Origin: a bacterium BMS3Abin06
Lineage (GTDB): Bacteria > Nitrospirota > Thermodesulfovibrionia > UBA6902
Assembly (NCBI GenBank): GCA_002897895.1
Contig: BDSY01000058.1
Coordinates: 40,109-104,108, forward strand
Direction: 5' to 3'
Length of the DNA stretch: 64,000 bases
Every line of letters starts with the position of its first letter. Within the stretch, counting starts at the first letter, position 1. Below are positions 15,989-61,803 of this stretch, in pieces. Below the pieces are notes generated by a model. That model made no database searches, had not been told where the DNA came from, and worked only from the letters and a program-made list of their open reading frames with translations. Position numbers and translations under genes: made by a program.

Positions 15989-16002
15989 TTTCGGGCGTTA
16001 TC

Positions 16003-23387: not shown

Positions 23388-23499
23388 CTGATTGCATAAC
23401 TCTTTAACTCTTTAACTCTTTAACTCTTTAACTCTTTAACTCTTTAACTCTTTAACTCTTTAACTCTTTAACTCTTTAACTCTTTAACTCTTTAACTCC
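23388..23499. repeat. Tandem repeat, about 13-14 copies of an 8-bp unit AACTCTTT
   Basis: Read directly. It sits between psd and pssA and supplies the last codons (..VKELKS) and stop of psd. Confidence 0.8.
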
Positions 23500-24117
23500 C
23501 AGTATCGTTTCACCTGCTGTAACCCTGTCGTTTAATTGTACCTTAATTTCAGTATCTAACGGCAGGTAAATATCCACCCTTGAACTGAACTTGATCATTC
23601 CGTATCTCTCTCCCTGGGAAAGTGATTCTCCGGGCTTTACCCTGCAAACCGCGCGCCTTGCAACAGCGCCCGCTATCTGTTTTACCACAACCGGCCCGTG
23701 ATTATCACAATCAAGAAGCATGGTGATATGTTCATTTAAAATTGAGGCATCGTCTTTAAATGCGGAATAGAACTTGCCGGGGTAATGCTGAACATCTTTG
23801 ACAATGCCGTCACACGGCGCCCTGTTAATATGGACGTTTAACGGCGACATGAAGGTGCTTATCTTCAGTCTGTTCCCGTTTAATATCTCGTCTTCCTTTG
23901 CCTCTGTAATCAGGATAATTTTTCCGTCGGCAGGGGCAATGAATGCGTTCCTGTCAGTGGTTATGACCCTCTCGGGATCTCTGAAAAAATAGAACATGAA
24001 GAGCGTAAGTATCAGCGCAAGCGCAGCCCCCCATCTCAACCCCAGGATTGCTGATATAACAGTGATTGAAGCGAAGAAGATGATAAAAGGATAGCCTTCT
24101 TTAGCAAATTGAAGCAT
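23476..24117 (-). CDS. psd: Phosphatidylserine decarboxylase-related protein (small Psd/Asd type)
   Basis: 213 aa with an N-terminal TM segment, read by eye as a PSD-like fold. Context is psd-pssA. Confidence 0.6.
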   Translation of the reverse strand: MLQFAKEGYPFIIFFASITVISAILGLRWGAALALILTLFMFYFFRDPERVITTDRNAFIAPADGKIILITEAKEDEILNGNRLKISTFMSPLNVHINRAPCDGIVKDVQHYPGKFYSAFKDDASILNEHITMLLDCDNHGPVVVKQIAGAVARRAVCRVKPGESLSQGERYGMIKFSSRVDIYLPLDTEIKVQLNDRVTAGETILGVKELKS

Positions 24118-24186: not shown

Positions 24187-25260
<1,074 letters not shown>

Positions 25261-32978: not shown

Positions 32979-34895
32979 ATGAACGCAACACAGAAGTTAA
33001 TATCATCACATCTCGAATCAGGAAAAATGAATGCCGGTGAAGAGATTGCAATATCAATCGACCAGACATTGACCCAGGATGCAACGGGGACAATGGCGTA
33101 TCTTGAATTTGAGGCAATGGGCATCCCAAAGGTAAAGACAAAGCTGTCGGTAAGCTATGTTGACCATAATACACTTCAGACAGGATTTGAGAATGCCGAT
33201 GACCACAGATTCTTAAAGACGATAGCAGGCAAATACGGAATTTATTTTTCAAGACCCGGAAACGGCATCTGCCACCAGGTCCACCTCGAAAGATTCTCGC
33301 GGCCCGGGCAGACTCTTTTAGGTTCAGACAGCCACACACCAAACGCAGGCGCTGCAGGTATGCTCGCCATAGGCGCAGGCGGGCTTTCTGTAGCCCTTGC
33401 AATGGCCGGAGAGGCGTTCTGGCTGGTGATGCCTGAAGTTTTACACATAAAACTTACAGGCACATGCCAAAGGGGAGTAAGCGCAAAAGATATAATCCTT
33501 GAAGTCCTCAGAAGATTGAGTGTAAAGGGCGGTGTCGGCAAGATTATTGAATACGGCGGTGTCGGCATAAAGAACCTCACCATACCCGAAAGGGCAACAA
33601 TAACAAACATGGGCGCTGAACTCGGAGCCACATCCTCTGTTTTCCCTTCAGATGAGCAGACCCTGGCCTTTTTCAGGGCAGAGGGACGTGAAAGTGACTG
33701 GAAGGAACTTAAGCCTGACCCGGACGCTGAATATGATGAAGAGATAATTATAGATCTTGATGCCCTGGAACCCCTCATAGCTGCCCCGTCAAGTCCTGAT
33801 AATGTGAAGCTCGTAAAAGATGTCGAAGGGAAGCCGGTGAGGCAGGTTTGCATAGGGAGCTGCGTTAATTCCTCTTTTGCCGATCTCATGATTGCAGCAA
33901 AAATACTTAAAGACAACAAGGTTCATCCTGATGTAAGTCTTGCAATCAGTCCAGGCTCGCGGCAGGCATTACAGATGATTACAGAAAACGGGGCATTGGC
34001 AGATCTCATATCAGCCGGTGCAAGAGTCCTTGAATGTACTTGCGGTCCATGCATTGGAATGGGGCAGTCGCCTGCAACAGGTACAATAACGCTCAGGACC
34101 TTTAACAGGAATTTTCCCGGCAGAAGCGGTACGCCTGATGACCGGGCTTATCTCTGCAGTCCTCTGACAGCGGCAGCCTCTGCAATTACCGGTAAGATAA
34201 CAGACCCCCGGGATATTGTGAAAGAACCCATAAGGATTTCCCTTCCCGGGAAATATACTATAGACGATTCAATGATTATCCCGCCTTCGGATGAGCCGGG
34301 GGAAGTTGTGATTGAGAGAGGCCCCAACATCAAACCATTCCCTGTAAAAGGGGCGCTTGAGGAATCCTTAAAAGCAGTGGTGATATTGAAAGTCGGTGAC
34401 AATATTACAACTGATGACATCATGCCGGCCGGCGCAAAGATTCTGCCCTTAAGATCAAATATCCCTGCTATATCCGAATATGTATTTTCAAAAGTAGATG
34501 CTACATTCCCTGCCAGGGCCAGGTCTCAGGGCAGTGGAATTATTCTTGGGGGAATAAACTATGGCCAGGGGTCAAGCAGGGAACATGCAGCCCTTGCGCC
34601 GATGTATCTCGGCATCAAGGTCGTGCTTGCCAAGTCCTTTGCGCGTATCCACAGGGACAACCTGATAAATTTCGGCATTATTCCATTAACTGTTTCTCCG
34701 GAGGTATATGATTCCTTTGAACAGGATGCTGAAATAGAGTTTCCGAACCTTGCTAAAGAAGTAAGGGAATCGTCGGAAATAACTTTTGCAGATATCAATA
34801 AAGGTGAAACATACTCGGCAGAACACGGCCTTACAGCAAGGCAGAGGGGAATAATTTTAGCCGGTGGATTGCTCAATTATGTAAGGGGAAAATAA
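32979..34895 (+). CDS. Aconitase-family hydratase (fused catalytic and swivel domains, ~640-aa class)
   Basis: SDSHTPNAGAAG and other aconitase Fe-S ligand-region motifs; 638 aa. Confidence 0.7.
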   Translation: MNATQKLISSHLESGKMNAGEEIAISIDQTLTQDATGTMAYLEFEAMGIPKVKTKLSVSYVDHNTLQTGFENADDHRFLKTIAGKYGIYFSRPGNGICHQVHLERFSRPGQTLLGSDSHTPNAGAAGMLAIGAGGLSVALAMAGEAFWLVMPEVLHIKLTGTCQRGVSAKDIILEVLRRLSVKGGVGKIIEYGGVGIKNLTIPERATITNMGAELGATSSVFPSDEQTLAFFRAEGRESDWKELKPDPDAEYDEEIIIDLDALEPLIAAPSSPDNVKLVKDVEGKPVRQVCIGSCVNSSFADLMIAAKILKDNKVHPDVSLAISPGSRQALQMITENGALADLISAGARVLECTCGPCIGMGQSPATGTITLRTFNRNFPGRSGTPDDRAYLCSPLTAAASAITGKITDPRDIVKEPIRISLPGKYTIDDSMIIPPSDEPGEVVIERGPNIKPFPVKGALEESLKAVVILKVGDNITTDDIMPAGAKILPLRSNIPAISEYVFSKVDATFPARARSQGSGIILGGINYGQGSSREHAALAPMYLGIKVVLAKSFARIHRDNLINFGIIPLTVSPEVYDSFEQDAEIEFPNLAKEVRESSEITFADINKGETYSAEHGLTARQRGIILAGGLLNYVRGK

Positions 34896-34946: not shown

Positions 34947-35100
34947 TAATTAGTGTCTGTGTATAAATTGCTATTTTATTCCTGTCATGCCCGAAGTCTT
35001 TAATCGGGCATCCAGAACTCATTAGAAAAGACTGGATTCCGGCTTAAGGACTGCCGGAATGACAGACAGGCACATTGAGTTTATACACAGACACTAATTA
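34947..35100. mobile_element. MITE-like element, copy 1 (154 bp, perfect 21-bp terminal inverted repeats TAATTAGTGTCTGTGTATAAA)
   Basis: TIRs read directly. An internal secondary inverted repeat is present. A second copy lies at 44476..44630. Confidence 0.65.
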
Positions 35101-35140
35101 GTTAAGAGAGATAAATTTTTATGGAAAGGGGGGTTCGACT

Positions 35141-35488
35141 ATGAGATTATTACTCGTGCTGTTAAGTTTGCTTGTCTTCGTGATGGCTGGATGTACTACT
35201 ACTTATGTGATGAAATCCGGGGACAAGATGCTGCTGGAAAATGCAATAAATGCAGCAAAAGATGCAAAGTCTTCTGCTGAAGATGCGTCCTCTGCTGCAA
35301 GTAATGCATCAATGAAAGCAGACAAGGCGGAAAGAGCTGCTAACAGAGCGGAAGGCGCAGCTGACAGAGCTGGAAATGCGGCAGACAGAGCGGAAAGGGC
35401 TGCAAACAGAGCGGAGCGCGCGGCTGATGATGCTGCATCAGCGGCTGAAAAGTCTGTCAAGGCATTTGAAATGAAACAGATGAAATAA
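35141..35488 (+). CDS. Lpp-like alanine-rich coiled-coil lipoprotein
   Basis: Signal peptide plus lipobox (VMAGC), then repeated AERAANRAE heptad-like units. Confidence 0.6.
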   Translation: MRLLLVLLSLLVFVMAGCTTTYVMKSGDKMLLENAINAAKDAKSSAEDASSAASNASMKADKAERAANRAEGAADRAGNAADRAERAANRAERAADDAASAAEKSVKAFEMKQMK

Positions 35489-35489
35489 A

Positions 35490-36368
35490 TTACCTTGAAA
35501 TCACGGCAGGAAGCCCTGTTGCACTTTTTATTGCGTGAATCATCAGTTGTGTGTCAACATATTTAAGCAGGCGCTTCCTGCCGAGATTTTTTACGGCAAG
35601 CATCATAAGTTCCGGGTCTTCTATCCCCGAACGGTGAACCTCAATATAAACCTTATTGTTATACATGCCTGTCTTTACCGGTTCGTTTAATATCTTAACC
35701 GGTGTTCCCGGTTTGATGAATTTAAATAGTGTTTTTATATCCTCAGGATAAAGCCTGATGCAGCCGTGGCTCACTCTGCGTCCAATTCCATACGGCCTGT
35801 TTGTACCGTGTATCCCATAACCGTTTACTGAAAGCTGCAGCCAGTATCCGCCAAGGGGATTGTCAGGGCCGGGTGGAACAAAGGCCGGCAGTTCAGGGTT
35901 TTCTTCCCTGATATTATCCGGAACATGCCAGACCGGGTCTTTGACTTTCAGAGTTACTCTGAAAATACCCGTGGGGGTATTGAATCCCTGTCTCCCGATG
36001 CCTATCGGGTAAGTCGTAACATATTTACGGTTATTTAAAATAAAAAAATAATATAGCCTCATTTCTGCAAGGTTAATTATCAGGCCGTCATCTAAAATCT
36101 CCGGAAGAAGCCATGAAGTCGGTATTATTATTCTGCTTCCGTTATCAGGCACCCAGGGATCACTGTTACTGTTGGCAGCAGCAATTTCGTTAAATCCTAC
36201 GTCATATTCCCTGGCAAGCTTAATAAGTGTCTCATCGTCTTGTATCGTATATGTTCTGTTAACACCTATAATCAATTTGGACGGGTTATCAAGAGGAAAG
36301 ACGCCGGAGCCATATATATTTGAAACGGCAAGTAATAAGAGAGCCACTGTTAAGGTCAGGATACGCAT
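35490..36368 (-). CDS. L,D-transpeptidase (YkuD/ErfK family) with N-terminal LysM domain
   Basis: HGCIRL catalytic motif, a LysM-like segment and a signal peptide. Confidence 0.75.
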   Translation of the reverse strand: MRILTLTVALLLLAVSNIYGSGVFPLDNPSKLIIGVNRTYTIQDDETLIKLAREYDVGFNEIAAANSNSDPWVPDNGSRIIIPTSWLLPEILDDGLIINLAEMRLYYFFILNNRKYVTTYPIGIGRQGFNTPTGIFRVTLKVKDPVWHVPDNIREENPELPAFVPPGPDNPLGGYWLQLSVNGYGIHGTNRPYGIGRRVSHGCIRLYPEDIKTLFKFIKPGTPVKILNEPVKTGMYNNKVYIEVHRSGIEDPELMMLAVKNLGRKRLLKYVDTQLMIHAIKSATGLPAVISR

Positions 36369-36529
36369 GCTTAATAATAAATTATTTTTTTATCTTTTTT
36401 CCTGAAAGTATTAAATTGCACACTGTTGGGTGACCTGGGATTCCACCGAAATATCGTTTGCATCGACCGGCTACATAACGTGCTTAATTTAGGTTACCTG
36501 TAGTGGTATGATTTGTTATAATTAATCCC

Positions 36530-36931
36530 ATGAAGAAAGCTACTACAAACTGGTTACTATCAATGGAGTACGACTTAAAAACCGCCGCATCATTATTAAA
36601 AAACAAGAGATATATCTATGTGGTCTTTATGTGCCATCTTGCCATAGAGAAAGCCCTGAAAGCGATACTTTCAGAGATGCATAAAGAACTGCCGCCGTAT
36701 ACCCATAATATCAATCGACTGATAGAGTTAGGAACTATATCACTACCTGACACCTATCAGGTTTTTATTGACAAAATCAATCTCCAGAGTGTACCAACAA
36801 GATATCCTGAGGATTTTCAGAAAATTTCAAAAGAATTCAATAAAAAGATCGCTGAAGATTATTTAAAGCAAACAAGGGGAATAATAAGATGGTTAAAGCA
36901 AAATATACCACAACTGAAATCAAAAAAATAG
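36530..36931 (+). CDS. HEPN-domain protein (toxin-like partner of the MNT)
   Basis: CHLAIEKALKA helix typical of HEPN; 133 aa. Confidence 0.6.
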   Translation: MKKATTNWLLSMEYDLKTAASLLKNKRYIYVVFMCHLAIEKALKAILSEMHKELPPYTHNINRLIELGTISLPDTYQVFIDKINLQSVPTRYPEDFQKISKEFNKKIAEDYLKQTRGIIRWLKQNIPQLKSKK

Positions 36932-37230
36932 TAAGAGCTTTGGTTGAAATACTTATTACAAATAACATAGCTGTCGATAAAATAATATTGTACGGTTCTT
37001 ACGCCACCGGCAGACCTCGTAACCATTCAGACATAGACATAGCAGTGATTTCACCTTCTTTTAACGGGAAGAAAATTCTGGAAATTCAGGAAGAACTTGC
37101 AAAGGCATTTTCAAAATATCTGTCAATAATAGAACCTGTTGGATATTCATCAGAAGATTTCCGGGCTGCTGAACCGGAGACCCTGCTCGGTGAAATTAAG
37201 AAGGCAGGAAAGATACTGTATGCTGCTTGA
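36889..37230 (+). CDS. Minimal nucleotidyltransferase (MNT) domain protein
   Basis: LYGSYATG....SDIDIAV (GSx9-13DxD); overlaps the HEPN gene by 43 nt. Confidence 0.7.
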   Translation: MVKAKYTTTEIKKIVRALVEILITNNIAVDKIILYGSYATGRPRNHSDIDIAVISPSFNGKKILEIQEELAKAFSKYLSIIEPVGYSSEDFRAAEPETLLGEIKKAGKILYAA

Positions 37231-37269
37231 AAAGCAGACAACCATAAGATGCTGATGGATGCATCAGAT

Positions 37270-37592
37270 ATAGACATACTGTATCTGCAATGCAGAGTCA
37301 AATTTGGCAGCGAATTGCTGATAATGACTCGCACAAAGTGTTGATTTCTAATTGACAAACATGCTTGCCATGATATATAAAATGATACTGCTGATTCACC
37401 AAAACCAAAATAAGCTCCAATTTCCCTTAATGGAGAGCCATTAAATCTATGGCTTGCATATATCGTCACCTTTTTCGCAATTGATTCATCGTAAAAAAGA
37501 TTCGTCACCTTTTTATATATTGACTCAATATTTTCAACTTTTCTGATCTCTCTCATTGCAGGAAAATCTCTGTCCTTGTTTTTCAGATTCAT
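37270..37592 (-). CDS. Hypothetical HTH protein with a DnaA domain-IV-like segment (possibly truncated)
   Basis: ...LREIGAYFGFGESAVS... resembles the DnaA C-terminal HTH. The upstream ORF-track extension overlaps the MNT gene, so only the N-terminal ~107 codons are called. Confidence 0.25.
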
Positions 37593-37722
37593 GTTCTATG
37601 GTTATTTGGGCAACAACCCGTAAAGATGCGACACCACAAAGAGAGAAAGAAGATTTTTCAGTGGCTTAATGCATTAAGCAGTTGTTAAGATATGCAAAAA
37701 ATAATAATGGAAATGAGAGGGG

Positions 37723-37840
37723 ACAGAACACTGAAAGGACAATTTCAGCAGCCTGTCAGGGGCTGATCCCGTTCAGTCTCCGTTGGATATTATGTTGATA
37801 TTTGAAATGGTTCTTATAGCATGCATTCTCGTCGCAGGTA
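37723..37840. repeat. 118-bp direct repeat copy A (diverged duplicate of the promoter and 5' end of the gene at 38500)
   Basis: 111/118 identical to 38440..38557. Encodes a truncated MDIMLIFEMVLIACILVAG... Confidence 0.8.
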
Positions 37841-37915
37841 CTCGTCAGACGTTTAGCCTTAAGGAATAAATGTTGAAACAATCTGATACTATTACTGATA
37901 TAATGATAAAATAAT

Positions 37916-38158
37916 ATGAAAGCAACAGAATATTTCAAATACATTCGAAAAAGGCCGGATAGGAGTATTATTAAAGATGAATGGATTGAGAAGGTTATCA
38001 ACTATCCATTGAAAGAGGAAATTCAATCAGATGGAAGAATCAGGAGATGGGCAAAAATAGAAGAAATGGACGGAAGAGCATTGAGGGTTATATTGTTAAG
38101 TGATGGAGAAACTGTTCATAATACATTTTTCGATAGATCATTCAAGGAGGATCGATAA
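37916..38158 (+). CDS. DUF4258-like small protein (putative toxin)
   Basis: 80 aa with a ...GRALRVILLSDGETVHNTFFDR tail. Confidence 0.45.
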   Translation: MKATEYFKYIRKRPDRSIIKDEWIEKVINYPLKEEIQSDGRIRRWAKIEEMDGRALRVILLSDGETVHNTFFDRSFKEDR

Positions 38159-38365
38159 ATGAAAATAAAATATTTTTCCGATACAGATACGGCATTATTG
38201 GAATTTTCTGAGAATGAAGTATACGAAACAAAAGAAATAAATGAAAATATATACATTGACCTGGGCAAGGATGGCAAGTTAATAAGTATGACAATAGAAC
38301 ACGCTAAAGAGCAGGCAACAATAAAAGAGTTCTCCTATCAGGAAATTGAGAAAGAAATTGCATGA
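38159..38365 (+). CDS. DUF2283-like small protein (putative antitoxin)
   Basis: MKIKYFSDTDTALLEFSENEV... has a typical DUF2283 start. Its start abuts the previous stop. Confidence 0.5.
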   Translation: MKIKYFSDTDTALLEFSENEVYETKEINENIYIDLGKDGKLISMTIEHAKEQATIKEFSYQEIEKEIA

Positions 38366-38439
38366 CTGGATAACAAGACAGTTGTTATCTTCCCAATTAA
38401 ACCAACTCAAAGAATAATCCAATCGTCAGTGGGGGCGCC

Positions 38440-38557
38440 ACAGAACACTGAAAGGACAATTTCAACAGCCTGTCAAGGGCTGATCCCGTTCAGTCTCCCT
38501 TGGATATTATGTTAATATTTGAAATCGTTCTTATAGCTTGCATCCTCGTCGCAGGTA
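38440..38557. repeat. 118-bp direct repeat copy B (native 5' region of the methyltransferase gene)
   Basis: See copy A. Confidence 0.8.
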
Positions 38558-39069
38558 TGCTTATTGTGTTGACATCGATGAAAACCGGCATTTCTCCTTC
38601 CCCGAGTTCAAGCAAGACTGTCCGGGCAATGATGGCAACTATGGAAGATTCAGGAGCAGGACCTATCGTGGACCTGGGGTCCGGGTGGGGAACACTCGTT
38701 ATCGCATTCGCCGGAAAGTACCCGCAGCGACAGGTGATTGGTTATGAATTATCACTGGTTCCATGGTTATTCTCATCGATTCGCAAGTCTGTCTCGCGAT
38801 TGAACAATCTGACCCTGTATCGCAAAGATTTCCGGAATGCCGACCTCTCTCATGCATCTGTCCTCACATGTTACCTGTTCCCCGGGGGCATGGTTTCTCT
38901 TAAGGAAAAACTGGAACGCGACAAGATAACAGAAGTCCTCATTGTGAGCAGCACATTTGCACTGCCATCATCAGAGCCAACCAGGGTTATTCGGGTAAAG
39001 GACATGTACAGAACTCCGATTTATCTGTATCATCAAAGCCGGAGGGCCGTGTGTGGTCAATCTTTATAA
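38500..39069 (+). CDS. Small membrane-anchored class I SAM-dependent methyltransferase
   Basis: N-terminal TM helix and motif I VDLGSGWGT. Confidence 0.55.
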   Translation: MDIMLIFEIVLIACILVAGMLIVLTSMKTGISPSPSSSKTVRAMMATMEDSGAGPIVDLGSGWGTLVIAFAGKYPQRQVIGYELSLVPWLFSSIRKSVSRLNNLTLYRKDFRNADLSHASVLTCYLFPGGMVSLKEKLERDKITEVLIVSSTFALPSSEPTRVIRVKDMYRTPIYLYHQSRRAVCGQSL

Positions 39070-39267
39070 TTGACAAAAATAAAATGCTCTGACTTAGTTT
39101 CAAAACAGCGGCATACAGAAAACATGGTCTGCGCCACAATAAGTAATGCGCAATATTTCTGAAACCAATTCTTGCATTTGAGTATCAACACTCGCTTGTG
39201 CAAGGATGAGTTGTTTTTCCCTTCTGAAAATGGTAGTATTTATTCATACCGGCAAGGAGGCTTTTCA

Positions 39268-39504
39268 ATGGCAACAGCAGTAAAGAAAACAATATCACTT
39301 CCACCTGAACTCGCAAAAGAAGCTGAAGAGATTGCCCGCGAGGAAGGGAAGCCGCTGAGTGTTGTAATTCAGGATGCCCTGCGGCTCGCCAGAAAAGAAA
39401 GACTCAAAAAGGGATTTAAAGAATTACAGGGATACTGGAGTAGTAAAGCTAAAGAAAAAGGTATCCTAACCGAAAAAGATCTGCAGAAATACCTCAAAAA
39501 ATGA
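39268..39504 (+). CDS. Ribbon-helix-helix (CopG-like) antitoxin
   Basis: SD AAGGAGG. MATAVKKTISLPPELAKEAEEIAREEGK.... The start is chosen downstream of the ORF-track start. Confidence 0.55.
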   Translation: MATAVKKTISLPPELAKEAEEIAREEGKPLSVVIQDALRLARKERLKKGFKELQGYWSSKAKEKGILTEKDLQKYLKK

Positions 39505-39893
39505 GGGTTGTTTTTGATTCAAATATTTTCATTTCCGCCCTCATTATTCACGGCAGCCGGGCTGAAAAGGCAATTGTCAGGATTGTCAATAATCAGGATA
39601 TACTTGTCCTGTCCAAGACGATCATTGATGAGGTATTATCCGTTCTTGCTAAAAAATTCAGTCGTGACAGAGAGGCTATAAGCCGTGTTGCAGTTTATCT
39701 TGATGAGCTGGGAGATATCGTTTGTCCAATCAAGATGCTCAAGATATTCAGGGACGATCCTGATAACAGGATTCTTGAATGCGCAGTCAGCGGAAAAGCA
39801 GACGCAATCGTAACCGGTGATAAAGAAATGCTCAGTTTAAAGGAGTATAAAGGGATAAAGATAATGACTCTAAGAGATTATATGGAGCATTAA
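39501..39893 (+). CDS. PIN-domain toxin (VapC-like)
   Basis: MRVVFDSNIFISAL start and conserved acidic residues; overlaps the antitoxin stop. Confidence 0.65.
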   Translation: MRVVFDSNIFISALIIHGSRAEKAIVRIVNNQDILVLSKTIIDEVLSVLAKKFSRDREAISRVAVYLDELGDIVCPIKMLKIFRDDPDNRILECAVSGKADAIVTGDKEMLSLKEYKGIKIMTLRDYMEH

Positions 39894-39941
39894 CAATTAA
39901 TTTTCCGCGCCGCATTCTTTCTTTAAACCCATATAGGAATA

Positions 39942-41087
39942 TTGTTTATGTATGAATATCAGAGGAATAAGCTTTATTTTGCCCAGATTGCAGATGGGAT
40001 AAAAGAACTGGGGGTAGAGGAACTGTCTGAACTTGGTGCGCGTAAAGTCAGCCCTGCATATGGGGGGATTTATTTTAATGCGGACAGGGAAGCGCTTTAT
40101 CGAATCAATTATTTCACAAGATTTGCTTCAAGAATTCTTGCGCCCCTCGTCTCGTTTGATTGCGGCACTTCCGATCAATTATACGAAAAGGCAAAACAGA
40201 TAAACTGGCCGGATTTTATTTCCGGGAAAAATACATTTGCCGTATTCGGTAATGTATCAAACAGCATGATAACTAATTCACATTATGCATCTCTACGTTT
40301 AAAAGATGGAATTGCCGATTCATTCCGGGAGATATCCGGGAAAAGGCCTGATGTTGACTCAAGAAATCCGGATATATGGCTGAACCTCCACATCAGAGAT
40401 GACAAAGCCGTGATTAGTCTGGATACATCCGGAGGTTCTCTTCATCGCCGGGGATACAGAAAAGATTCCGTGTCTGCACCAATGCAGGAGACGGTTGCTG
40501 CGGCGATTATCAGATATGCAGAATGGAATGGAGAAGTTCCGCTTTATGATCCAATGTGCGGTTCCGGCACTTTACTCTGTGAAGCGTTGATGCATTACTG
40601 CAAAATCCCTTCAGCTATTTTTCGTGAACACTTTGGATTTGAATTTTTGCCGGACTATGATAGCTCAGTATGGAAAAAAGTCAAAAAAGAACTTAACGGG
40701 CAAATCCGGGACCTGCCTGAAGGATGTATTGTCGGCAGTGATTTATCCCCAAAAGCTGTTGAAATATCAAGGCTGAATATATGTAATTTGGAGTATGGAG
40801 AAAAAATAAAACTTGAAGCGCTTGATTTCAGAAAAATCAAAGGTCTGGAAAATGGAATTATTATTACAAATCCTCCGTACGGCATCCGTATGGGAAACAG
40901 GCAGGAACTTGATCTCCTTTACAAATCGCTTGGAGATTTTTTAAAACAGAAATGCAAAGGTTCTGCTGCCTATATTTATTTCGGTGAACGGGAATTTATA
41001 AAAAAAATCGGCCTGAAACCGACCTGGAAAAAGCCGTTGAAAACAGGCGGCCTTGATGGAAGATTAGTAAAATATGAGATGTTTTAA
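39942..41087 (+). CDS. THUMP-domain RNA (guanine-N2) methyltransferase, RlmL/Trm14-like
   Basis: NPPYG motif (IITNPPYGIRMG) and a SAM-binding DPMCGSGT. Confidence 0.7.
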   Translation: MFMYEYQRNKLYFAQIADGIKELGVEELSELGARKVSPAYGGIYFNADREALYRINYFTRFASRILAPLVSFDCGTSDQLYEKAKQINWPDFISGKNTFAVFGNVSNSMITNSHYASLRLKDGIADSFREISGKRPDVDSRNPDIWLNLHIRDDKAVISLDTSGGSLHRRGYRKDSVSAPMQETVAAAIIRYAEWNGEVPLYDPMCGSGTLLCEALMHYCKIPSAIFREHFGFEFLPDYDSSVWKKVKKELNGQIRDLPEGCIVGSDLSPKAVEISRLNICNLEYGEKIKLEALDFRKIKGLENGIIITNPPYGIRMGNRQELDLLYKSLGDFLKQKCKGSAAYIYFGEREFIKKIGLKPTWKKPLKTGGLDGRLVKYEMF

Positions 41088-41091
41088 ATAA

Positions 41092-41583
41092 ATGGAAGAG
41101 AAAAGTAAAACACAAAGGAAAAAAGAAGCTCAGTCTTTGCAGGTGCTTGGAGAGAAGCTTGTGAAATTGTCAATTGAACAGATCAAAGAGATTGATCTGC
41201 CGGTTGAAATTTACGACGCCGTCAAATTTGCAAAAACAATTAAAAAACATGGTGCGATTAAAAGGCAGATGCAGTACATTGGTACAGTGATGCGAAAATA
41301 TGATCCTGAGCCTATTCGGGAAGCCCTTGATAATATAGAACATGGGAACTACAAAAAAGCCATGGCATTCAAAGAGATAGAAGAATGGCGGGATGAACTT
41401 ATAGCCGGAAATAAAATGCTTATGGAAGAAATATTGGAAAAATGTCCTGATGCAGACCGGCAGCAATTAACCCAGCTTGTTCGGAATGCTATCAGGGAAA
41501 TGGAGAATAATAAGCCGCCCAGGGCATCCCGGACATTATTCCATTATCTATCTAAAGAAAATAAGAAACAGGTAAGATATTAA
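41092..41583 (+). CDS. yjgA: Ribosome-associated protein YjgA/DarP (DUF615)
   Basis: QMQYIGTVMRKYDPEPIREALD and PDADRQQLTQLVRNAIRE...NKPP match the E. coli YjgA pattern. Confidence 0.7.
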   Translation: MEEKSKTQRKKEAQSLQVLGEKLVKLSIEQIKEIDLPVEIYDAVKFAKTIKKHGAIKRQMQYIGTVMRKYDPEPIREALDNIEHGNYKKAMAFKEIEEWRDELIAGNKMLMEEILEKCPDADRQQLTQLVRNAIREMENNKPPRASRTLFHYLSKENKKQVRY

Positions 41584-41607
41584 AAATCCAATAAAGTGAG
41601 GTTGAAG

Positions 41608-41925
41608 ATGAAAGAATATGTCATGATTCCTTTTCAGGTAGAGGAGGACAAATTAGAAGAGGCGAAGAAGGCCATAAATGAGCTTATCTCTAATGTTCGT
41701 GAGAATGAGCCCGGAACGCTGCTTTACAAATCACTTCAGTTAAAGAAAGACCCGACAAGTTTCGTTCATTTTATGGTTTTTGCCGATAATGCTTCTCACA
41801 TGCATCACCGCACCGCTAAATATGTATTGGAATTTGTGAAAAAACTTTATTCTCTTTGCCCTAATGAACCGTATCCGATTTTTCTTGAGAATTTTGATTC
41901 ATGCGGTATTGCTTTAGAACCATAA
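41608..41925 (+). CDS. Antibiotic-biosynthesis-monooxygenase (ABM/Dabb-like) small alpha+beta barrel protein
   Basis: About 105 aa with a ferredoxin-like fold pattern. Confidence 0.35.
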   Translation: MKEYVMIPFQVEEDKLEEAKKAINELISNVRENEPGTLLYKSLQLKKDPTSFVHFMVFADNASHMHHRTAKYVLEFVKKLYSLCPNEPYPIFLENFDSCGIALEP

Positions 41926-41953
41926 AGGTAGTGGGTCATTTTGGGATAATAGT

Positions 41954-42376
41954 TCACGAATTTTTTATAGAGAAACATCTTTTTGGATAATTTATTTTAA
42001 GAGTAAAATTATCTAAAAAACTTCTAACACCCAATAAAACGATATTTAAGCCTTCAGAAAAATCAATAGATTTATCAGGGATACTGTAAATGACTTTATT
42101 TTGTTTTATGTCAAATATTTCAATTGTTGTTGTGTGTGAATATGCAGTAGTCAGACCTCCAGCAGTATGAACAGGCTTAGCCGTTCCATTTTCAAGTTTA
42201 TGCCCTAATTGTTCAGTTAAGAAAGCAGGCATAGTACAATCATCTGCCCCTGTATCAATCAAACCGTAAGTATCGATATGTTTACGCGTATGCGGATTAG
42301 TTATTCTAACAGGCAACCAGGGACGTTCTACATCATTTTTCCTTAAACATAAGAACGGGAAGTCTGTTATTGGCAT
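41954..42376 (-). CDS. Retropepsin-like aspartic protease (clan AA)
   Basis: GLIDTGAD (D-T/S-G-A) active-site motif. Confidence 0.6.
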   Translation of the reverse strand: MPITDFPFLCLRKNDVERPWLPVRITNPHTRKHIDTYGLIDTGADDCTMPAFLTEQLGHKLENGTAKPVHTAGGLTTAYSHTTTIEIFDIKQNKVIYSIPDKSIDFSEGLNIVLLGVRSFLDNFTLKINYPKRCFSIKNS

Positions 42377-42594
42377 TAATATATATGTACCATACCCTTT
42401 TTAGGTACATAAAATATTACAGGGTTTCTTGCGCCCTTCTTTTTTGCATTGTTGAAAACTTTTGCGGGATCAGAGCCGGAACTTAGCACCTCATTGTTCT
42501 TAAAAGAACGAGTGGCAACATATTTGCCATCATACTTACTGCCATCTTTTAACAAAATAGTAGCTTGCATATTGTTCCTCTCTTTCTTCTTCAT
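42376..42594 (-). CDS. Small hypothetical protein immediately upstream of the retropepsin-like gene
   Basis: 72 aa. Its stop is adjacent to the start of the downstream gene. Confidence 0.3.
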   Translation of the reverse strand: MKKKERNNMQATILLKDGSKYDGKYVATRSFKNNEVLSSGSDPAKVFNNAKKKGARNPVIFYVPKKGMVHIY

Positions 42595-42967
42595 GGTTTT
42601 TATATCGGGATATCATTACTTTTACTTTAATTATAGAATGATAAGGGTAATAGTCAATAGAAAGCACAAAAACGGTATCTCTTTTGGCCCAATGTTCATA
42701 GATTATTATTAATTTATTATAGGATTCTGTCAAGCATTATTTGGATATTAAGAAATATTATACTATGCAGATAATATGGGAATATGTGTGACCTGTTCTA
42801 CAATAGAACGGGCAAGGACATTAATATCTTTGGAAGGTTTTTGCGTTACGGGTTTTTTGCTTGACCGTTTAGGCATGTTTTATTCTAACATGCCGTACTG
42901 TCATTGTCTATAACCATGAAATCCAAACTGACCCACTACCATAAAAAAGACAATAAAAAAGACTTTC

Positions 42968-43147
42968 TTGACACACTGTTTTTGAAGCAGTATACTTAAA
43001 ACTTACCTGGGGGAGGCGATGCCTGAGAGTCCCGGCTATTCGGGAGACCCCTTGAACCTGAACTGGTTAATGCCAGCGGAGGAAAGGATAAATAGCACCT
43101 TATACCGTATTCCCGCAGGTAGTTACCATAAGGGAATACGGTTTTTT
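42968..43147 (+). ncRNA. Promoter (TTGACA-17-TATACT) plus TPP (THI-box) riboswitch with terminator expression platform
   Basis: CTGAGA, ACCC and TTGAACCTGAACTGGTTAATGCCAGCGGAGG THI-box core. An 11-bp perfect hairpin ACCGTATTCCC/GGGAATACGGT with a T-run lies at 43104..43147. Confidence 0.8.
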
Positions 43148-43159
43148 ATTTGGAGAAAA

Positions 43160-44476
43160 ATGGATCAAAAAGAACTCACGAAATCCGATGCATTATATAT
43201 CAGGGATATCCTTGCGAAATCTCTTGATATGCAATCATTGAACCTTACCGAGGTCTCGGCGCTTTTAGAAGTAAGCGACAGGTACCTGTGGTCGGAGATA
43301 TTTGATGCTGCACGCAGTGTAAAGGAAAAGGTTTATGGAAAAAGGATCGTGCTCTTTGCCCCGCTCTATCTGTCAAACGAGTGCATGAATGACTGTTTGT
43401 ATTGTGGTTTCAGAAAGGGCAACACGGATGCAAAGAGAAAAACGCTTACTGTAAATGAAGCGCTCGAAGAGGCGGCCCTGCTTGCAGGCAGGGGATATAA
43501 AAGGCTTCTGCTTGTTTCGAGTGAACATCCAAAACGTGCGGGTATTGATTATTTTGAAAAAATTACAGATGCAATTTATAAGAAAACGGATATTCGGATC
43601 CTGCACGTAAACTCCGCCCCTATGAGCGTGGATGATTTTAAAAGGCTCAAGGCCTCGGGTGTTGGTGTATATCAGTGCTTCCAGGAGACATATCACATGC
43701 CGACTTACAGGTTTATGCATCCGACAGGGTCTAAATCGGATTATGCATGGCGTCTGGGAGTAATGGACAGGGCAATAGAAGCCGGCTTTGAGGATGTGGG
43801 AATGGGCGTGCTGCTTGGCCTTTATGACTGGCGCTGGGATGTGGCTGCATTGATTGCCCATTGCCGGAGGCTTATTAATAAATACGGATTCGGCCCTCAC
43901 ACCCTCTCTGTTCCGAGATTGCAGCCGGCACAGGGTTCTAAGGCGGATAATTTACGGTACAGGGTTTCGGACGATGACCTCAAAAAAATAGTCGCTATTT
44001 ACAGGCTGGCCCTGCCTTATGTCGGCGTTGTTGTTTCTACGAGAGAGCCGTCCGGACTCAGGGATGAACTGTTTTCATCAGGTGCGTCGCAGGTGTCGGC
44101 GGGGTCAAAGACGAGCCCGTGGGGCTATATGAAGGACGGTGATACCGAACAGTTTGAGATTGGAGACAGCAGGAGTCTTGAAGAGGTCATAGGGAAGATT
44201 GCAAGCCTTGGACTCATGCCGAGTCTCTGCACAGCCTGTTACAGGGAAGGCAGGAGCGGAGAGCGGTTTAAGAATCTTGCGGAGGAGACAACTATTAAAA
44301 ACTTCTGTCATGAAAATGCCCTCTTGTCTCTCAAAGAATACGTGGAAGATTGTGCATCAGGTGAAGTGAAAAAAGAATTAACAAAAATATTGAATGAAGA
44401 AATCGCTAAAAGCCGGAACGGTCTTGCTGAAAAGTTTAAACTTATTGAGGCTGGTAAGAGGGATATGCATGTATGA
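43160..44476 (+). CDS. thiH: ThiH/HydG-family tyrosine-lyase radical SAM enzyme (thiazole biosynthesis context; HydG-like C-terminal CX2CX22C)
   Basis: CMNDCLYC rSAM motif. C-terminal CTAC-22 residues-C. Sits behind the TPP riboswitch and ahead of thiSGEC. The start is reset to the ATG after the riboswitch. Confidence 0.65.
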   Translation: MDQKELTKSDALYIRDILAKSLDMQSLNLTEVSALLEVSDRYLWSEIFDAARSVKEKVYGKRIVLFAPLYLSNECMNDCLYCGFRKGNTDAKRKTLTVNEALEEAALLAGRGYKRLLLVSSEHPKRAGIDYFEKITDAIYKKTDIRILHVNSAPMSVDDFKRLKASGVGVYQCFQETYHMPTYRFMHPTGSKSDYAWRLGVMDRAIEAGFEDVGMGVLLGLYDWRWDVAALIAHCRRLINKYGFGPHTLSVPRLQPAQGSKADNLRYRVSDDDLKKIVAIYRLALPYVGVVVSTREPSGLRDELFSSGASQVSAGSKTSPWGYMKDGDTEQFEIGDSRSLEEVIGKIASLGLMPSLCTACYREGRSGERFKNLAEETTIKNFCHENALLSLKEYVEDCASGEVKKELTKILNEEIAKSRNGLAEKFKLIEAGKRDMHV

Positions 44477-44630
44477 ATTTAGAGTCTGTGTATAAATAAC
44501 GCAAATGCTCAAAAGCATGTCATTCCCGCAAGCGAAGCGAGTCGGGAATCCTTCTTAAAGAAACGATTCCGGACAAGCCGGAATGACAGAAAAACGACAA
44601 CTGTTAGACTTTATACACAGACACTAATTA
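44476..44630. mobile_element. MITE-like element, copy 2 (155 bp; right TIR identical to copy 1, left TIR 18/21)
   Basis: TTTATACACAGACACTAATTA at 44610..44630, in the thiH-thiS intergenic region. Confidence 0.6.
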
Positions 44631-44646: not shown

Positions 44647-44847
44647 ATGAAATTAATATTAAATGGCAATGAGACTGAATTCAGTGATGATCTTACGGTC
44701 GCAGGACTATTGAAGAATCTTGAGATCGAGCCTGTAAGGGTTGCGGTTGAGGTTAATCTGAATATTCTCAAAAAATGTGATTTTAAAAAGCATGTCCTGA
44801 AAGATGGCGATGCGGTGGAGATAGTTAATTTTGTAGGGGGAGGGTAG
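44647..44847 (+). CDS. thiS: Sulfur-carrier protein ThiS (ends Gly-Gly)
   Basis: 66 aa ending ...NFVGGG. Confidence 0.75.
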
Positions 44848-54176: not shown

Positions 54177-54226
54177 TTTTCCGCACATTGTAATAGTTAA
54201 CCGGGTATCTAAGATACCCGGTGAAG

Positions 54227-54390
54227 AAGTCAGGAGTCAGAATCCGGAATTCAGAATGAAAAGAGAAAAAGCTAAAGAGTTTCAAGATTTGATAGTCTGT
54301 CAAAAAGCGCATCAATCAGGAGAAATAAGTAAATTGTCAGAGGCATATTCCAAAGCAATTCTGACTCCTGACTCCTGACTCCTGAATTCT
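54227..54390. repeat. Inverted heptamer arrays (GAGTCAG)n/(CTGACTC)n flanking a ~100-bp segment that encodes an N-terminal remnant of a four-helix-bundle (23S IVS-type) protein
   Basis: Left arm 54227..54259, right arm 54358..54390. The internal remnant ORF reads MKREKAKEFQDLIVCQKAHQSGEISKLSEAY. Confidence 0.55.
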
Positions 54391-54910
54391 TGTTAAACAT
54401 TTTCTTATGCATATTCCTCTGTGGATTTCTGAATTCTTTAATAATTTAGCTTGCTTTTTTTAATCGATTTGTTAATAATTAGAAAATCCGTAACTTATTA
54501 CAGTATAATTTTTTATAATATCTGATTTATTAGTTTAATTATGAGAAAAAATATCCTGGTTATCAAGGAAGGTCTCATAAAAAAATTATATTTAATTCGG
54601 AATAGATCTCAGTATCAACTTCATATCGGCCCTGTCGGTTCGAAACCTATTCTAAAATTCAGAATACCTGCTCAGATTATTTCTTACAATAATTATGCCT
54701 GTTAAATATTGTACAGCTAAAGAATCATGGCGCTTAACTGCTTAATTTTATGCAAATGTAAGGTTAACTATTCAAGGATTTAAGCCGTATTAAGAGTAAG
54801 AGAGCCAAGGTTTTCTGATTAGGATAATCAGAAAAATCGGAGATAAAATGTCCGGAAATTACAGAAAACCTTCTTAAGAAACTTTTTATTAATAATACAA
54901 AGTTCATAAA

Positions 54911-60479: not shown

Positions 60480-60529
60480 TCTTGTCTTTTACGGTCACGT
60501 TAAACGGACACGTCCCACGATCCTTTCCA

Positions 60530-61675
60530 GTCGCAATCCCTTATTTATCAGGTCTTCTTTGATTCAAAGCAAACACAAACAGATACTGAACGCATAGTCG
60601 CAATCCCTTTTTCATCAGGTCTTCTTTGATTCTGTTTCACTGGGCAAATTAGGATTAATGCTTGCCGTCGCAATCCCTTTTTCATCAGGTCTTCTTTGAT
60701 TCTACCTGGCTGCAAAAAAGCCCTCCTTAATCCGATGTCGCAATCCCTTTTTCATCAGGTCTTCTTTGATTCACAGTCCTGAAGAATAACTGTAAAGCAA
60801 GTCGTCGCAATCCCTTTTTCATCAGGTCTTCTTTGATTCACCCTGCAGGAGGATGGGACATATCAGATATGGGAGTCGCAATCCCTTTTTCATCAGGTCT
60901 TCTTTGATTCAATGAAAAAGAGTGAACCCGTGAAGTGGCATTCAGTCGCAATCCCTTTTTCATCAGGTCTTCTTTGATTCATTATTTTTTTCTTATTTGA
61001 ATTACTAACTTTGTCGCAATCCCTTTTTCATCAGGTCTTCTTTGATTCGATTTTAAAATGTGCAATTACATATTAAGCGGCATGTCGCAATCCCTTTTTC
61101 ATCAGGTCTTCTTTGATTCCAAGATTGGAGCTTAGCCTCGCAGAACGTAAGAGTCGCAATCCCTTTTTCATCAGGTCTTCTTTGATTCTTTAAGGGCTAT
61201 CGGCTTGTGGTAGGCCACTGTGTCGCAATCCCTTTTTCATCAGGTCTTCTTTGATTCACTGTTGCTCTCCATGCTATGCAAGATTTTCTGGGTCGCAATC
61301 CCTTTTTCATCAGGTCTTCTTTGATTCAATTAATGTTGTTGGGAAACATCCAGCGCTGAGTCGCAATCCCTTTTTCATCAGGTCTTCTTTGATTCTCAAA
61401 AACAGGTCAAATACCTTTTGTCAAATACTCGTCGCAATCCCTTTTTCATCAGGTCTTCTTTGATTCCTTTCATTTCCTTTAATTACACTGCAAATTCACC
61501 AGTCGCAATCCCTTTTTCATCAGGTCTTCTTTGATTCTGTGCCTCATTCACAGAGGTACCTCTTTTGATCCGTCGCAATCCCTTTTTCATCAGGTCTTCT
61601 TTGATTCGTGAATACGGTGCCAAACGTGGTAAAAGATTAGTCGCAATCCCTTTTTCATCAGGTCTTCTTTGATTC
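60530..61675 (-). CRISPR. CRISPR array with 17 repeats of 36 nt (GTCGCAATCCCTTTTTCATCAGGTCTTCTTTGATTC on the plus strand) and 16 spacers of 31-35 nt
   Basis: Repeats start at 60530 (degenerate, 2 mismatches), 60597, 60667, 60736, 60804, 60875, 60945, 61013, 61084, 61153, 61222, 61292, 61360, 61431, 61502, 61572 and 61640. An AT-rich leader at 61676..61803 lies next to cas2. The degenerate repeat is distal. Transcription is inferred on the minus strand, so crRNA repeats would end ...GGGATTGCGAC. Confidence 0.9.
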
Positions 61676-61803
61676 AGCACCCCTCAAAAATAATTTGTGA
61701 AATCCAGCTATTACAGCGCCCATTGAGCAGCTTTTCTTTCTTACTGAAAGCAACCTGTTTTTGCCTCCCTTTTTTGAATTTTGAATCTTCGGAGCAGAGA
61801 CTT

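Follow-up and report, generated by a model that had tools for sequence, protein, structure and literature searches.

The question raised by this locus is whether two intergenic segments of about 155 bp, found in a 64-kb stretch of DNA (the window, which was analysed over its full length), are copies of one mobile element, and what would move them. Copy 1 occupies positions 34947-35100, with perfect ends TAATTAGTGTCTGTGTATAAA / TTTATACACAGACACTAATTA. Copy 2 occupies positions 44476-44630: its right end is identical to that of copy 1 and its left end matches at 18 of 21 positions. Both descriptions, given in the original prediction, were confirmed, as were the related interiors (GTCATKCCCG...CGGGMATCC...GATTCCGG...CCGGAATGAC in both copies). 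Searched with up to 3 mismatches, the 21-mer end has exactly 4 sites in the window, i.e. the ends of the two copies, and none in 100 dinucleotide shuffles of the window (0 expected); a family HMM search of the window also returned copy 1 and copy 2 only. That the similarity results from chance or from an assembly artefact is therefore close to impossible, and this explanation can be considered as already refuted. The sole observation in its favour is a break within copy 2 in two short contigs from the same population, whereas copy 2 is found at the thiH-thiS junction in five independent assemblies, all the assemblies of this population carry it, and hundreds of related copies exist elsewhere.

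As predicted, copy 1 lies between genes for aconitate hydratase (32979-34895) and an Lpp/OprI-like lipoprotein (35141-35488). The context proposed for copy 2 holds for its position, between a radical-SAM gene (ending at 44476) and thiS (44647-44847), downstream of a TPP riboswitch (42999-43101). The label thiH calls for a refinement: this ThiH/HydG-family gene passes the NCBIfam cut-off of HydG and not that of ThiH. An orthologous site lacking the insertion was found for neither copy; in the nearest relative (L122) an unrelated 111-bp spacer is present at the position of copy 2. The window encodes no transposase, in agreement with the original prediction, and about 72 kb of the host contig, the window included, contained no ssn gene and no gene for a transposase.

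Both copies share the same anatomy. In copy 1 a left hexamer TAATTA (34947..34952) is followed by the left terminal inverted repeat (TIR) GTGTCTGTGTATAAA (34953..34967, + strand), an end also carried by an ISNCY-type insertion sequence (IS). Then come an NTS/SRM-like hairpin A, TGTCAT-GCCCG-loop-CGGGC-ATCCAG (34983..35015, +), a central A-rich linker (35016..35031), a second NTS/SRM-like hairpin B, CTGTCATTCCGGCAGTCCTTAAGCCGGAATCCAG (35032..35064, −), the right TIR TTTATACACAGACAC (35080..35094, −) and a right hexamer TAATTA (35095..35100). In copy 2 the left hexamer AATTTA (44476..44481) is degenerate, 2 of its 6 positions being unlike the right hexamer; its first base is also the last base of the TGA stop codon of the thiH/hydG-like gene. 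The left TIR GAGTCTGTGTATAAA (44482..44496, +) falls within a family in which GAG and GTG variants are both common. It is followed by an NTS/SRM-like hairpin A with an expanded loop, TGTCATTCCCG-loop-CGGGAATCC (44518..44553, +), by hairpin B, TGTCATTCCGGCTTGTCCGGAATCG (44564..44588, −), after which a T-rich run is present on the minus strand only, by the right TIR TTTATACACAGACAC (44610..44624, −) and by the right hexamer TAATTA (44625..44630), 16 nt upstream of the thiS start codon.

The predicted 21-bp TIRs are thus inverted ends, of shorter length: the outer 6 bases behave as a duplicated target hexamer, so that the TIR proper measures 15 bp. A target duplication of TA or TAA had been proposed; the flanking sequence is instead a TA-WW-TA hexamer. 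Flanking hexamers in the family are distributed as follows: direct-only in 36 cases, inverted-only in 4, palindromic in 24 and unmatched in 33, and family conservation ends sharply just outside the hexamer. Neither window copy alone proves duplication: the hexamers of copy 2 are unequal (AATTTA vs TAATTA), and that of copy 1 is uninformative on its own because it is palindromic. Duplications of 2, 4 or 6 bp all imply the same empty site, so that the sequence is equally compatible with these three lengths.

The further copies expected of a MITE do exist. An 18-mer of the end was found in more than 113 loci, nearly all in Nitrospirota MAGs, which yielded 100 non-redundant complete elements whose lengths cluster around 144-145 and 153-155 bp. 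Among the matches listed, more than 100 further copies occur across Nitrospirota/Thermodesulfovibrionia species genomes, of which a hand count of the locus list gave about 40. This MITE family is widespread in Nitrospirota, mainly in Thermodesulfovibrionia, and is devoid of coding capacity. Its elements are built on a single plan: 15-bp TIRs GWGTCTGTGTATAAA, T-rich spacers and a core of about 70-80 bp, between two TA-WW-TA hexamers. The left TIR hardly varies among 45 aligned copies, and ends, spacers and core are in register in more than 60 copies from many species. The subfamily of copy 2 is common to L018, L092, L093 and L111 (89-91% identity). Family-wide comparison also revealed three unrelated interiors between the same ends, and tandem head-to-tail arrays with a 149-bp period, equal to the TIR-to-TIR length plus the hexamer, in which neighbours share one hexamer. 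In one genome two loci carry an identical 143-bp body between unlike hexamer repeats (TAATTA/TAATTA at one, TATTTA/TATTTA at the other). Two near-identical assemblies (L091 and L039) differ by one extra element plus a hexamer, a polymorphism that could also be an assembly collapse, both assemblies coming from the same sequencing project.

A transposase matched to these TIRs was identified in full-length elements of about 1.63 kb that share their ends and their flanking hexamer with the MITE. One of them (L046:190-1844) contains a single ORF of 453 aa, whose score of 358.6 bits with the ISNCY family transposase model NF033593 exceeds the cut-off of 325 bits and which also matches the Pfam DDE_Tnp_1 domain. 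Eighteen more IS copies of 1622 bp each are flanked mostly by TAATTA, and at least 2994 transposase homologs were counted. The two IS subfamilies correspond to the two TIR variants found in the MITEs. At L203 an intact IS copy abuts a MITE, and the same genome carries MITE loci L014, L020, L081 and L103. Further copies and a TIR-matched transposase are both present and, together with the direct hexamer repeats and the arrays, they support the MITE reading of the original prediction.

To the internal inverted symmetry described originally, which is real, a correction has to be made: the segments are hairpins of the NTS/SRM type. Judged from its sequence, the interior consists of two such hairpins (GTCAT-stem-loop-stem-ATCC) placed head-to-head, so that each DNA strand has one 5'-GTCAT-stem-loop-stem-ATCC-3' motif. 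NTS/SRM hairpins are the motif that small GIY-YIG nucleases (Ssn) of Neisseria and other bacteria bind and cut, and this only in ssDNA (PMC11893778). With the definitions of that work (Nat Commun 2025), the SRM pattern has 59 sites in 768 kb of family loci vs 3 in a shuffle, 32 of the 59 falling within MITEs, and the 28-nt Neisseria NTS consensus has seven sites with at most 1 mismatch. The four window hairpins have longer loops, for which reason none of them passes the strict SRM pattern. In the family alignment the hairpin stems covary and GTCAT and ATCC are fixed: for hairpin A (helix 3) all 5 pairs vary on both sides, with 96% paired, and hairpin B corresponds to helix 5. These fixed flanks around a covarying stem mirror the mutational map of SsnA, as do the GTC upstream and the C downstream of the palindrome in hairpin A of copy 1. 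The same type of hairpin pair directly brackets GIY-YIG genes (PF01541) at L071, L214, L045 and L204 in related Nitrospirota. The products, of about 105 aa, are assigned to cd10448/Ssn on architecture and on a Tyr-Tyr-Glu spacing equal to that of SsnA Y6, Y17 and E64, rather than by direct comparison with SsnA. The core of the MITE thus looks like a gene-less miniature of this cassette, its A-rich linker standing where the ssn gene stands in full-length cassettes. At L071 an ssn-bearing unit with a decayed left MITE end, and no clearly recognisable right TIR, directly abuts a complete MITE. We therefore consider it likely that both loci are MITE copies, of two subfamilies, moved in trans by the ISNCY transposase and having a miniature SRM-ssn-SRM cassette as their core.

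An alternative is that the hairpin pair itself is the real unit, spreading in an Ssn-linked or hairpin-dependent manner, with the ISNCY-type ends as incidental remnants and the DDE transposase uninvolved. Cores without ends do occur (L004:2739-2804, L011:1599-1667, L011:4262-4333, L023:6966-7030 and L029:7272-7348, among others), SRM-ssn-SRM cassettes without TIRs split operons at L214 and L216, and the NTS-ssnA-NTS architecture has been called IS-like (PMC11893778). Against this stand the register of ends, spacers and core, the direct repeat located outside the TIRs and not outside the core, the identical bodies that include the TIRs, the two other interiors between the same ends, and the array period, all of which make this alternative rather improbable. 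The interior, where short imperfect palindromes are combined mosaic-like into inverted pairs, also recalls BIME, i.e. REP-type palindromic units kept by a RAYT (IS200/IS605-like TnpA-REP). REP have a 5' GTAG-type head motif, whereas the present hairpins fit the NTS/SRM definition; moreover the loci examined showed no Y1 transposase, the partner identified is of the DDE type, and REP are not known to have long TIRs or flanking direct repeats. Such an origin is highly unlikely.

The original prediction kept a family of structured regulatory RNAs or terminators as a fallback, and in such a case the inverted ends would form the closing stem of a cis-acting RNA under selection. Folded as RNA, the copies give very stable long hairpins, one per copy (−66.3 kcal/mol, z = −9.1; −50.9 kcal/mol, z = −7.2), stems covary, and a terminator-like hairpin with a T-run is predicted on the minus strand of copy 2. 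However, relative to co-directional genes neither orientation of the elements is preferred (17 same, 18 opposite), and their distances to downstream start codons agree with a null built from TAWWTA sites, without position bias. Rfam gave no match for the element even at E up to 10, and promoter and terminator matches are no commoner than in shuffles, with no terminator predicted on the sense strand. Regulatory RNAs would not be expected to have directly repeated hexamers at their ends, to form tandem arrays or to have a partner that encodes a transposase, and the three unrelated interiors also argue against them. The fallback finds no support; it is largely refuted and we give it very little credence.

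Under the MITE reading, a gene-less miniature of an SRM-ssn-SRM cassette would have been enclosed by ISNCY ends, and would now be spread by that transposase. Movement by cut-and-paste or copy-in would be catalysed in trans by the DDE enzyme of the 1.63-kb IS, with insertion into AT-rich TAWWTA sites and duplication of at least the central two bases, most simply of all six. Cleavage of the hairpins by Ssn may be envisaged as well. The insertion of copy 2 would have split a tight thiH-thiS junction; since neither a sense-strand terminator nor a convincing promoter is predicted in copy 2, it must be transcribed through, as a long mRNA hairpin. An effect of this copy on thiH-thiS read-through, as suggested originally, may be envisaged. 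The elements probably act in this genome as passengers that are neutral or slightly harmful.

Correia elements (CREE) of Neisseria are the classic bacterial MITE: about 100-155 bp long, non-coding, TIR-bounded, intergenic and multicopy, they duplicate TA, are often co-transcribed with their neighbours and form a long hairpin as RNA. The Nitrospirota MITEs resemble them in all these respects except the repeat unit, which is TA-WW-TA. Their end sequences are unrelated to those of Correia elements, whose core is not known to have NTS hairpins, and they have a matching ISNCY-type IS, whereas to our knowledge no autonomous partner has been established for Correia elements. Neisseria intergenic mosaic elements (NIMEs) are repeat units flanked by dRS3 inverted repeats. 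Like them, the present elements form mosaic intergenic arrays with ATTCCC-N8-GGGAAT-type palindromes in inverted pairs (dRS3 description from PMC11893778); they differ in having IS-type TIRs and flanking direct repeats, features not known from NIMEs, as well as one constant plan and a partner that supplies a transposase gene. With NTS/SRM systems they share the fixed GTCAT...ATCC flanks around a variable covarying stem and, in Nitrospirota, single-domain small GIY-YIG genes between two inverted hairpins. They differ in that the hairpins, in a constant head-to-head pairing, lie within a transposable element bounded by TIRs, and in that the window has longer-looped hairpins outside the strict pattern and no ssn gene. 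The NTS/SRM identity of a MITE interior is new here; the main text of PMC11893778 makes no mention of Nitrospirota or of a MITE context. The autonomous partner shares its main features with the ISNCY family (NF033593 above cut-off, DDE_Tnp_1, single ORF, inverted ends); its nearest annotated relative is ISRle10 of Rhizobium johnstonii, and it is only about 34% identical to annotated ISNCY/ISRle10 plasmid transposases. The ISDol1 group of ISNCY makes 6-7-bp direct repeats, which would fit the hexamer. Finally, MICs are TIR-bounded, transposase-less elements with a passenger gene inside, e.g. MIC231 of Bacillus cereus. Unlike MICs, the L071 unit has no recognisable right end and is a single case, but its GIY-YIG gene and two hairpins behind a MITE-type left end form the arrangement expected of a passenger-bearing MITE relative, and provide a lead in this direction.

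The two MITE copies were recovered at 34947-35100 (copy 1, 154 bp), with perfect 21-base ends, and at 44476-44630 (copy 2, 155 bp), whose right end is identical and whose left end agrees at 18 of 21 positions, as given in the original prediction. Allowing up to 3 mismatches, the 21-mer end occurs at exactly 4 sites in the 64 kb and at none in 100 shuffles. The copies lack coding capacity, no ORF of 50 aa or more overlapping either of them. The terminal repeats were described as 21 bp long: the inverted ends are confirmed, but the terminal inverted repeat (TIR) proper is a 15-bp core, GWGTCTGTGTATAAA, present at each end of both copies, and the outer six bases are a duplicated hexamer. Copy 1 and copy 2 belong to different subfamilies; their own hexamers are uninformative for copy 1 (TAATTA/TAATTA) and degenerate for copy 2 (AATTTA/TAATTA). 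With an HMM built from 45 family members, no copy besides these two is detected in the window, and none at all in an additional 8.4 kb of the host contig.

Copy 1 is indeed intergenic, with an aconitate hydratase gene on one side and an Lpp/OprI-like lipoprotein gene on the other. Copy 2 had been placed between thiH and thiS behind a riboswitch; its position and thiS stand, whereas the upstream gene (43160-44476) is a ThiH/HydG-family radical-SAM gene that passes the HydG cut-off only (HydG, 421.7 bits for an NCBIfam cut-off of 312; ThiH, 299 for a cut-off of 380). This gene nevertheless belongs to the thiS-thiG-thiE-thiC cluster, within which copy 2 sits 3' of a TPP riboswitch (42999-43101). 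The first base of copy 2 is also the final base of the upstream stop codon, and 16 nt separate the right end of the copy from the thiS ATG; the insertion therefore split a spacer of roughly 20 nt. For annotation, the thiH-thiS spacer is here an insertion into a TPP-riboswitch-controlled operon. Two short contigs of the window's population stop inside this element (L118:1-71 and L119:1-115), as is typical where a multi-copy repeat interrupts short-read assembly.

Other repeats were noted in the window. A 272-nt perfect direct repeat (4934-5205 and 16000-16271, 11,066 bp from copy to copy) bounds a segment of about 11 kb with genes for an HTH regulator, a ThiS-like protein, a B12-radical SAM protein, an aldehyde:ferredoxin oxidoreductase, an ABC transporter and an acyl-CoA dehydrogenase. 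In another assembly of the same population (L247) the sequence is 100% identical up to 5205 and resumes at 16000, so that the segment is absent and the patatin gene lies next to the GH3 gene; the difference reflects either a genuine indel/island polymorphism or an assembly jump over the 272-nt repeat. A CRISPR array (60524-61692) holds at least 17 copies of the 36-nt repeat GTCGCAATCCCTTTTTCATCAGGTCTTCTTTGATTC with a 67-71-bp period, and adjoins a pair of Cas1-like ORFs that overlap on the minus strand (62079-63843), which may be a frameshifted or duplicated cas1. The remaining repeats are an 8-bp tandem repeat, TAACTCTT, of about 13 copies (23397-23500), a 118-nt direct repeat, 94% identical (37723-37840 and 38440-38557, 717 bp apart), and an inverted repeat of 34 nt, 79% complementary with a 100-nt spacer (54224-54391), made of GAGTCAG/CTGACTC units just 3' of a relA/spoT-like gene.

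The existence of further copies elsewhere was borne out by a scan of one genome per species (596 Gb), in which the 18-mer TTTATACACAGACACTAA matches at least 113 loci. Among the matches listed, nearly all are MAGs labelled Nitrospirota, Nitrospirae, Thermodesulfovibrionia or Thermodesulfovibrio, from about 40 species by hand count; a handful of lone matches in unrelated phyla, without a partner end, is about the chance rate by our own estimate for 596 Gb. Pairing of left and right ends yielded 100 non-redundant complete elements, with lengths clustering at about 144-145 and 153-155 bp, of which 91 are intergenic by a crude ORF call. Identity between the window copies and those of other species is 75-91%, and the TIR is nearly invariant across 45 aligned copies. 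No description of the family was found in the literature searched by organism, IS family and end sequence, and it seems to be undescribed in the searchable literature. Its ends, unusually conserved across the whole phylum, are a handy marker; the family often breaks assemblies of Nitrospirota MAGs and, for annotation, accounts for many spurious short ORFs in Nitrospirota genomes.

Directly outside the conserved GWGTC...GACWC lies the hexamer TA-WW-TA, beyond which conservation drops abruptly. A target duplication of TA or TAA had been suggested; a flanking direct repeat is present at the family level, but its unit is the hexamer. Flanking hexamers of 97 elements are distributed as follows: direct-only in 36 cases, inverted-only in 4, palindromic in 24 and unmatched in 33. 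Direct-only hexamers are thus much more numerous than inverted-only ones, and therefore the outer six bases are a duplicated target and not part of the inverted repeat. Duplications of 2, 4 or 6 bases fit equally, because all three predict the empty site TAWWTA. Head-to-tail elements are common, with one hexamer between neighbours and a period of 149 bp. The BMS3Bbin05 genome has an identical 143-bp body on two contigs, flanked by TAATTA/TAATTA in one case and by TATTTA/TATTTA in the other. Two loci of one sequencing project, with flanks 100% and 99% identical, carry two elements (L091) and one element (L039), the difference being exactly one element plus one TAAATA (149 bp); it could also be an assembly collapse. 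When junctions were searched all-against-all for empty sites, tandem arrays confounded most of the result, leaving one usable case. For the window copies no empty site was found among the assemblies compared: copy 2 is occupied in all 5 with enough upstream sequence, and two more contigs break inside it. Nor was an empty thiH-thiS site found among 80 metagenomic ThiG loci, of which only L122 and L141 retain thiH beside thiS, both with unrelated spacers; in the nearest relative with thiH beside thiS the spacer is an unrelated 111 bp.

The search through the TIRs for a parent IS led to an ISNCY-family element with the same ends (L046, L203, L226-L245). Two pairs of ends about 1.6 kb apart led to an intact copy with a single ORF of 453 aa (L046) and a decayed copy (L027). 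The 453-aa protein has a DDE_Tnp_1 domain and scores 358.6 bits with NF033593 (ISNCY family transposase, cut-off 325); the IS5 and IS1182 families were rejected, their NCBIfam models scoring far below their cut-offs. This transposase has at least 2994 homologs at E <1e-20, the best 120 being 77-94% identical; a 1622-bp element, in most cases between TAATTA hexamers, is present in 18 of 20 further encoding contigs. Two IS subfamilies, with ends GAGTCTGTGTATAAA and GAGTCTGTCCATAAA, were distinguished, and both variants are also found in MITEs. In L203 an intact IS copy directly adjoins a MITE, one TAATTA being common to both, and the same genome also has MITE loci L014, L020, L081 and L103. MITE and IS are alike only in their ends, their interiors being different, and neither the window nor an additional 8.4 kb of the contig contains a transposase homolog. 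The nearest annotated relatives of the partner transposase are ISNCY/ISRle10-type transposases on plasmids, at about 34% identity. From these sequences we infer that the MITEs are probably mobilised in trans by the ISNCY transposase. The MITE interpretation is borne out by copy number, direct hexamer repeats and the IS with matching ends. It can also be stated more precisely: the ends are 15 bp long, the target repeat is TAWWTA and the partner belongs to the ISNCY family. Considered only as a MITE, the element is ordinary.

We see no sign of a host function in either window copy. The predicted RNA fold of copy 2 is a hairpin of -51 kcal/mol, which would be placed in the mRNA if, as is likely, the downstream thi genes are transcribed through the copy. 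We regard the alternative initially put forward, a structured regulatory RNA or terminator family, as highly improbable: relative to co-directional flanking genes, the asymmetric core lies about equally often in either orientation (17 same, 18 opposite), and the distance from elements to start codons is no shorter than for TAWWTA sites generally. No sense-strand terminator is predicted, terminator-like sites being only antisense, and promoter-like and terminator-like matches are at the background level of shuffled sequences. In Rfam there is no match at the gathering score, and permissive settings return only noise (E = 1.7 and 8.7). A preference for sites just 5' of ribosome-binding sites was considered and rejected, since 6 of 81 ends are within 30 nt of a start codon compared to 26 of 287 intergenic TAWWTA sites, i.e. 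without enrichment. The idea that ATGACA and the TIR together make an outward promoter was likewise discarded, with spacing ranging by our reading from about 14 to 22 nt among copies and scan matches no commoner than in shuffles. The Correia element (CREE) was also rejected: the present ends are GWGTCTGTGTATAAA with a TA-WW-TA repeat, as against the Correia terminal repeat and a TA duplication. We take the Correia end sequence to be unrelated to GWGTCTGTGTATAAA.

Within the MITE, the core reads GTCAT-stem-loop-stem-ATCCAG, a short A-rich linker, then CTGGAT-stem-loop-stem-ATGAC. In the 45-copy alignment GTCAT, ATCC and ATGAC are almost invariant, and both sides change in 5 of 5 pairs of the first hairpin stem and in 3 of 6 of the second; 91% of the cells are paired, compared to 26-43% when partners are slid by 1-3 columns. 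The core is also present without terminal repeats at some loci, and the TIRs of the family also bound two other interiors. At L022:5567-5710, L023:3565-3708, L058:3508-3651 and L080:972-1115, the same TIRs and hexamers surround a wholly different 100-bp interior with CCCTCNCCCTCAAGGGAGNGGG-type palindromes, and therefore the ISNCY ends carry at least three unrelated hairpin cargoes.

The hairpins were compared to the targets of the Ssn nucleases, namely the NTS of Neisseria, CGTCATTCCCGCGMAVGCGGGAATCYRG, and the SRM, a degenerate Ssn-related motif (PMC11893778, 2025). SsnA is a 94-aa GIY-YIG protein that binds and cuts the NTS hairpin only in single-stranded DNA, and ssn genes typically have the hairpins on their flanks (PMC11893778). 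How NTS/SRM hairpins multiply, and the role of Ssn outside Neisseria, are left open in that paper, whose main text does not mention Nitrospirota (PMC11893778). The published SRM pattern, HGTCWYN(0-2)YYVSBRHN(0-5)WNVSBRGN(0-2)RNCYNB (PMC11893778), has 59 sites in 768 kb of Nitrospirota loci, against 3 in a shuffle, and 32 of the 59 are inside MITEs; the NTS consensus with at most 1 mismatch has 7 sites in the same loci. None of the window's four hairpins, which have longer loops, matches the strict SRM pattern, and the only match in the window is an unrelated site (25045-25078). All four retain GTC 5' and C 3' of the palindrome.

A motif search of the fetched loci identified small GIY-YIG ORFs in L071 and L045 that match Pfam PF01541 only. 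In such PF01541-only proteins, of about 95-106 aa, SRM matches abut both ends in L071 and L214, with variants in L045, L204 and L216. The Tyr-Tyr-Glu spacing of the L071 and L045 ORFs is that of Y6, Y17 and E64 of SsnA. Of 8000 scored candidate homologs, 7996 are below 1e-10, and those named among the best 120 are mostly Nitrospirae or Thermodesulfovibrionales. No curated NCBIfam family fits the Nitrospirota proteins, and the PDB offers at best a weak match, to a UPF0213 protein; their architecture and catalytic-residue spacing suggest that they are ssn-like, with cd10448 as the candidate class. GIY-YIG genes are absent from both the window and another 8.4 kb of its contig.

Hairpin-flanked ssn-like cassettes separate rmlC from an epimerase gene (L214:964-1320), etfB from etfA (L216-L225, around 1001-1318), and a glycosyltransferase gene from a methyltransferase gene (L204:1001-1318); in these intra-operon cassettes the last ~10 codons and the stop codon lie in the 3' hairpin. 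The L214 unit is exact from GTCAT to ATGAC: its SRM hairpin stops 6 nt 5' of the ATG, and the last ~10 codons and TGA are inside the inverted second hairpin (...SGFPDRVGE*). The MITE core is this SRM-ssn-SRM structure with about 16 nt in place of the gene. In L071 the hairpin-ssn-hairpin unit opens with a decayed MITE left end directly abutting a complete MITE; a right TIR of this unit was not found, and a candidate at 5044 was dismissed as a chance or rearranged palindrome. On the minus strand of L076:25-260, beside a MITE, a GIY-YIG gene without N-terminus is preceded by four tandem GTCATGGTGAGCYT and appears to be a decayed ssn-like cassette.

The MITE cargo is thus a pair of Ssn-type hairpins that resembles an ssn cassette reduced to a miniature without its gene; at the sequence level the evidence for this is good. 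We tentatively suggest, as a reading somewhat short of an even chance, that Ssn-target hairpins of Nitrospirota are not self-spreading, a gene-less SRM-ssn-SRM miniature having been captured between ISNCY ends and copied around the genome and between species by the DDE transposase. If so, the element would be chimeric, one mobile system spreading the recognition sites of another, nuclease-based system, and the expansion of NTS/SRM repeats, so far unexplained, would have a concrete mechanism. Each insertion would then create, on both strands, a target for the cutting of single-stranded DNA, whether incoming or replicating; in a host with an Ssn homolog, each copy would amount to one cleavable hairpin on either strand when the DNA is single-stranded. 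Spread of a fixed hairpin pair by a transposase is a route that can be tested in this family, which also supplies matched sets of hairpin, GIY-YIG gene and transposase for biochemistry. In SsnA, cutting depends most on the three bases 5' of the palindrome and binding most on the C just 3' of it (PMC11893778); the MITE hairpins, with a fixed GTC, a variable paired stem and a fixed C, follow the same pattern as this mutational map.
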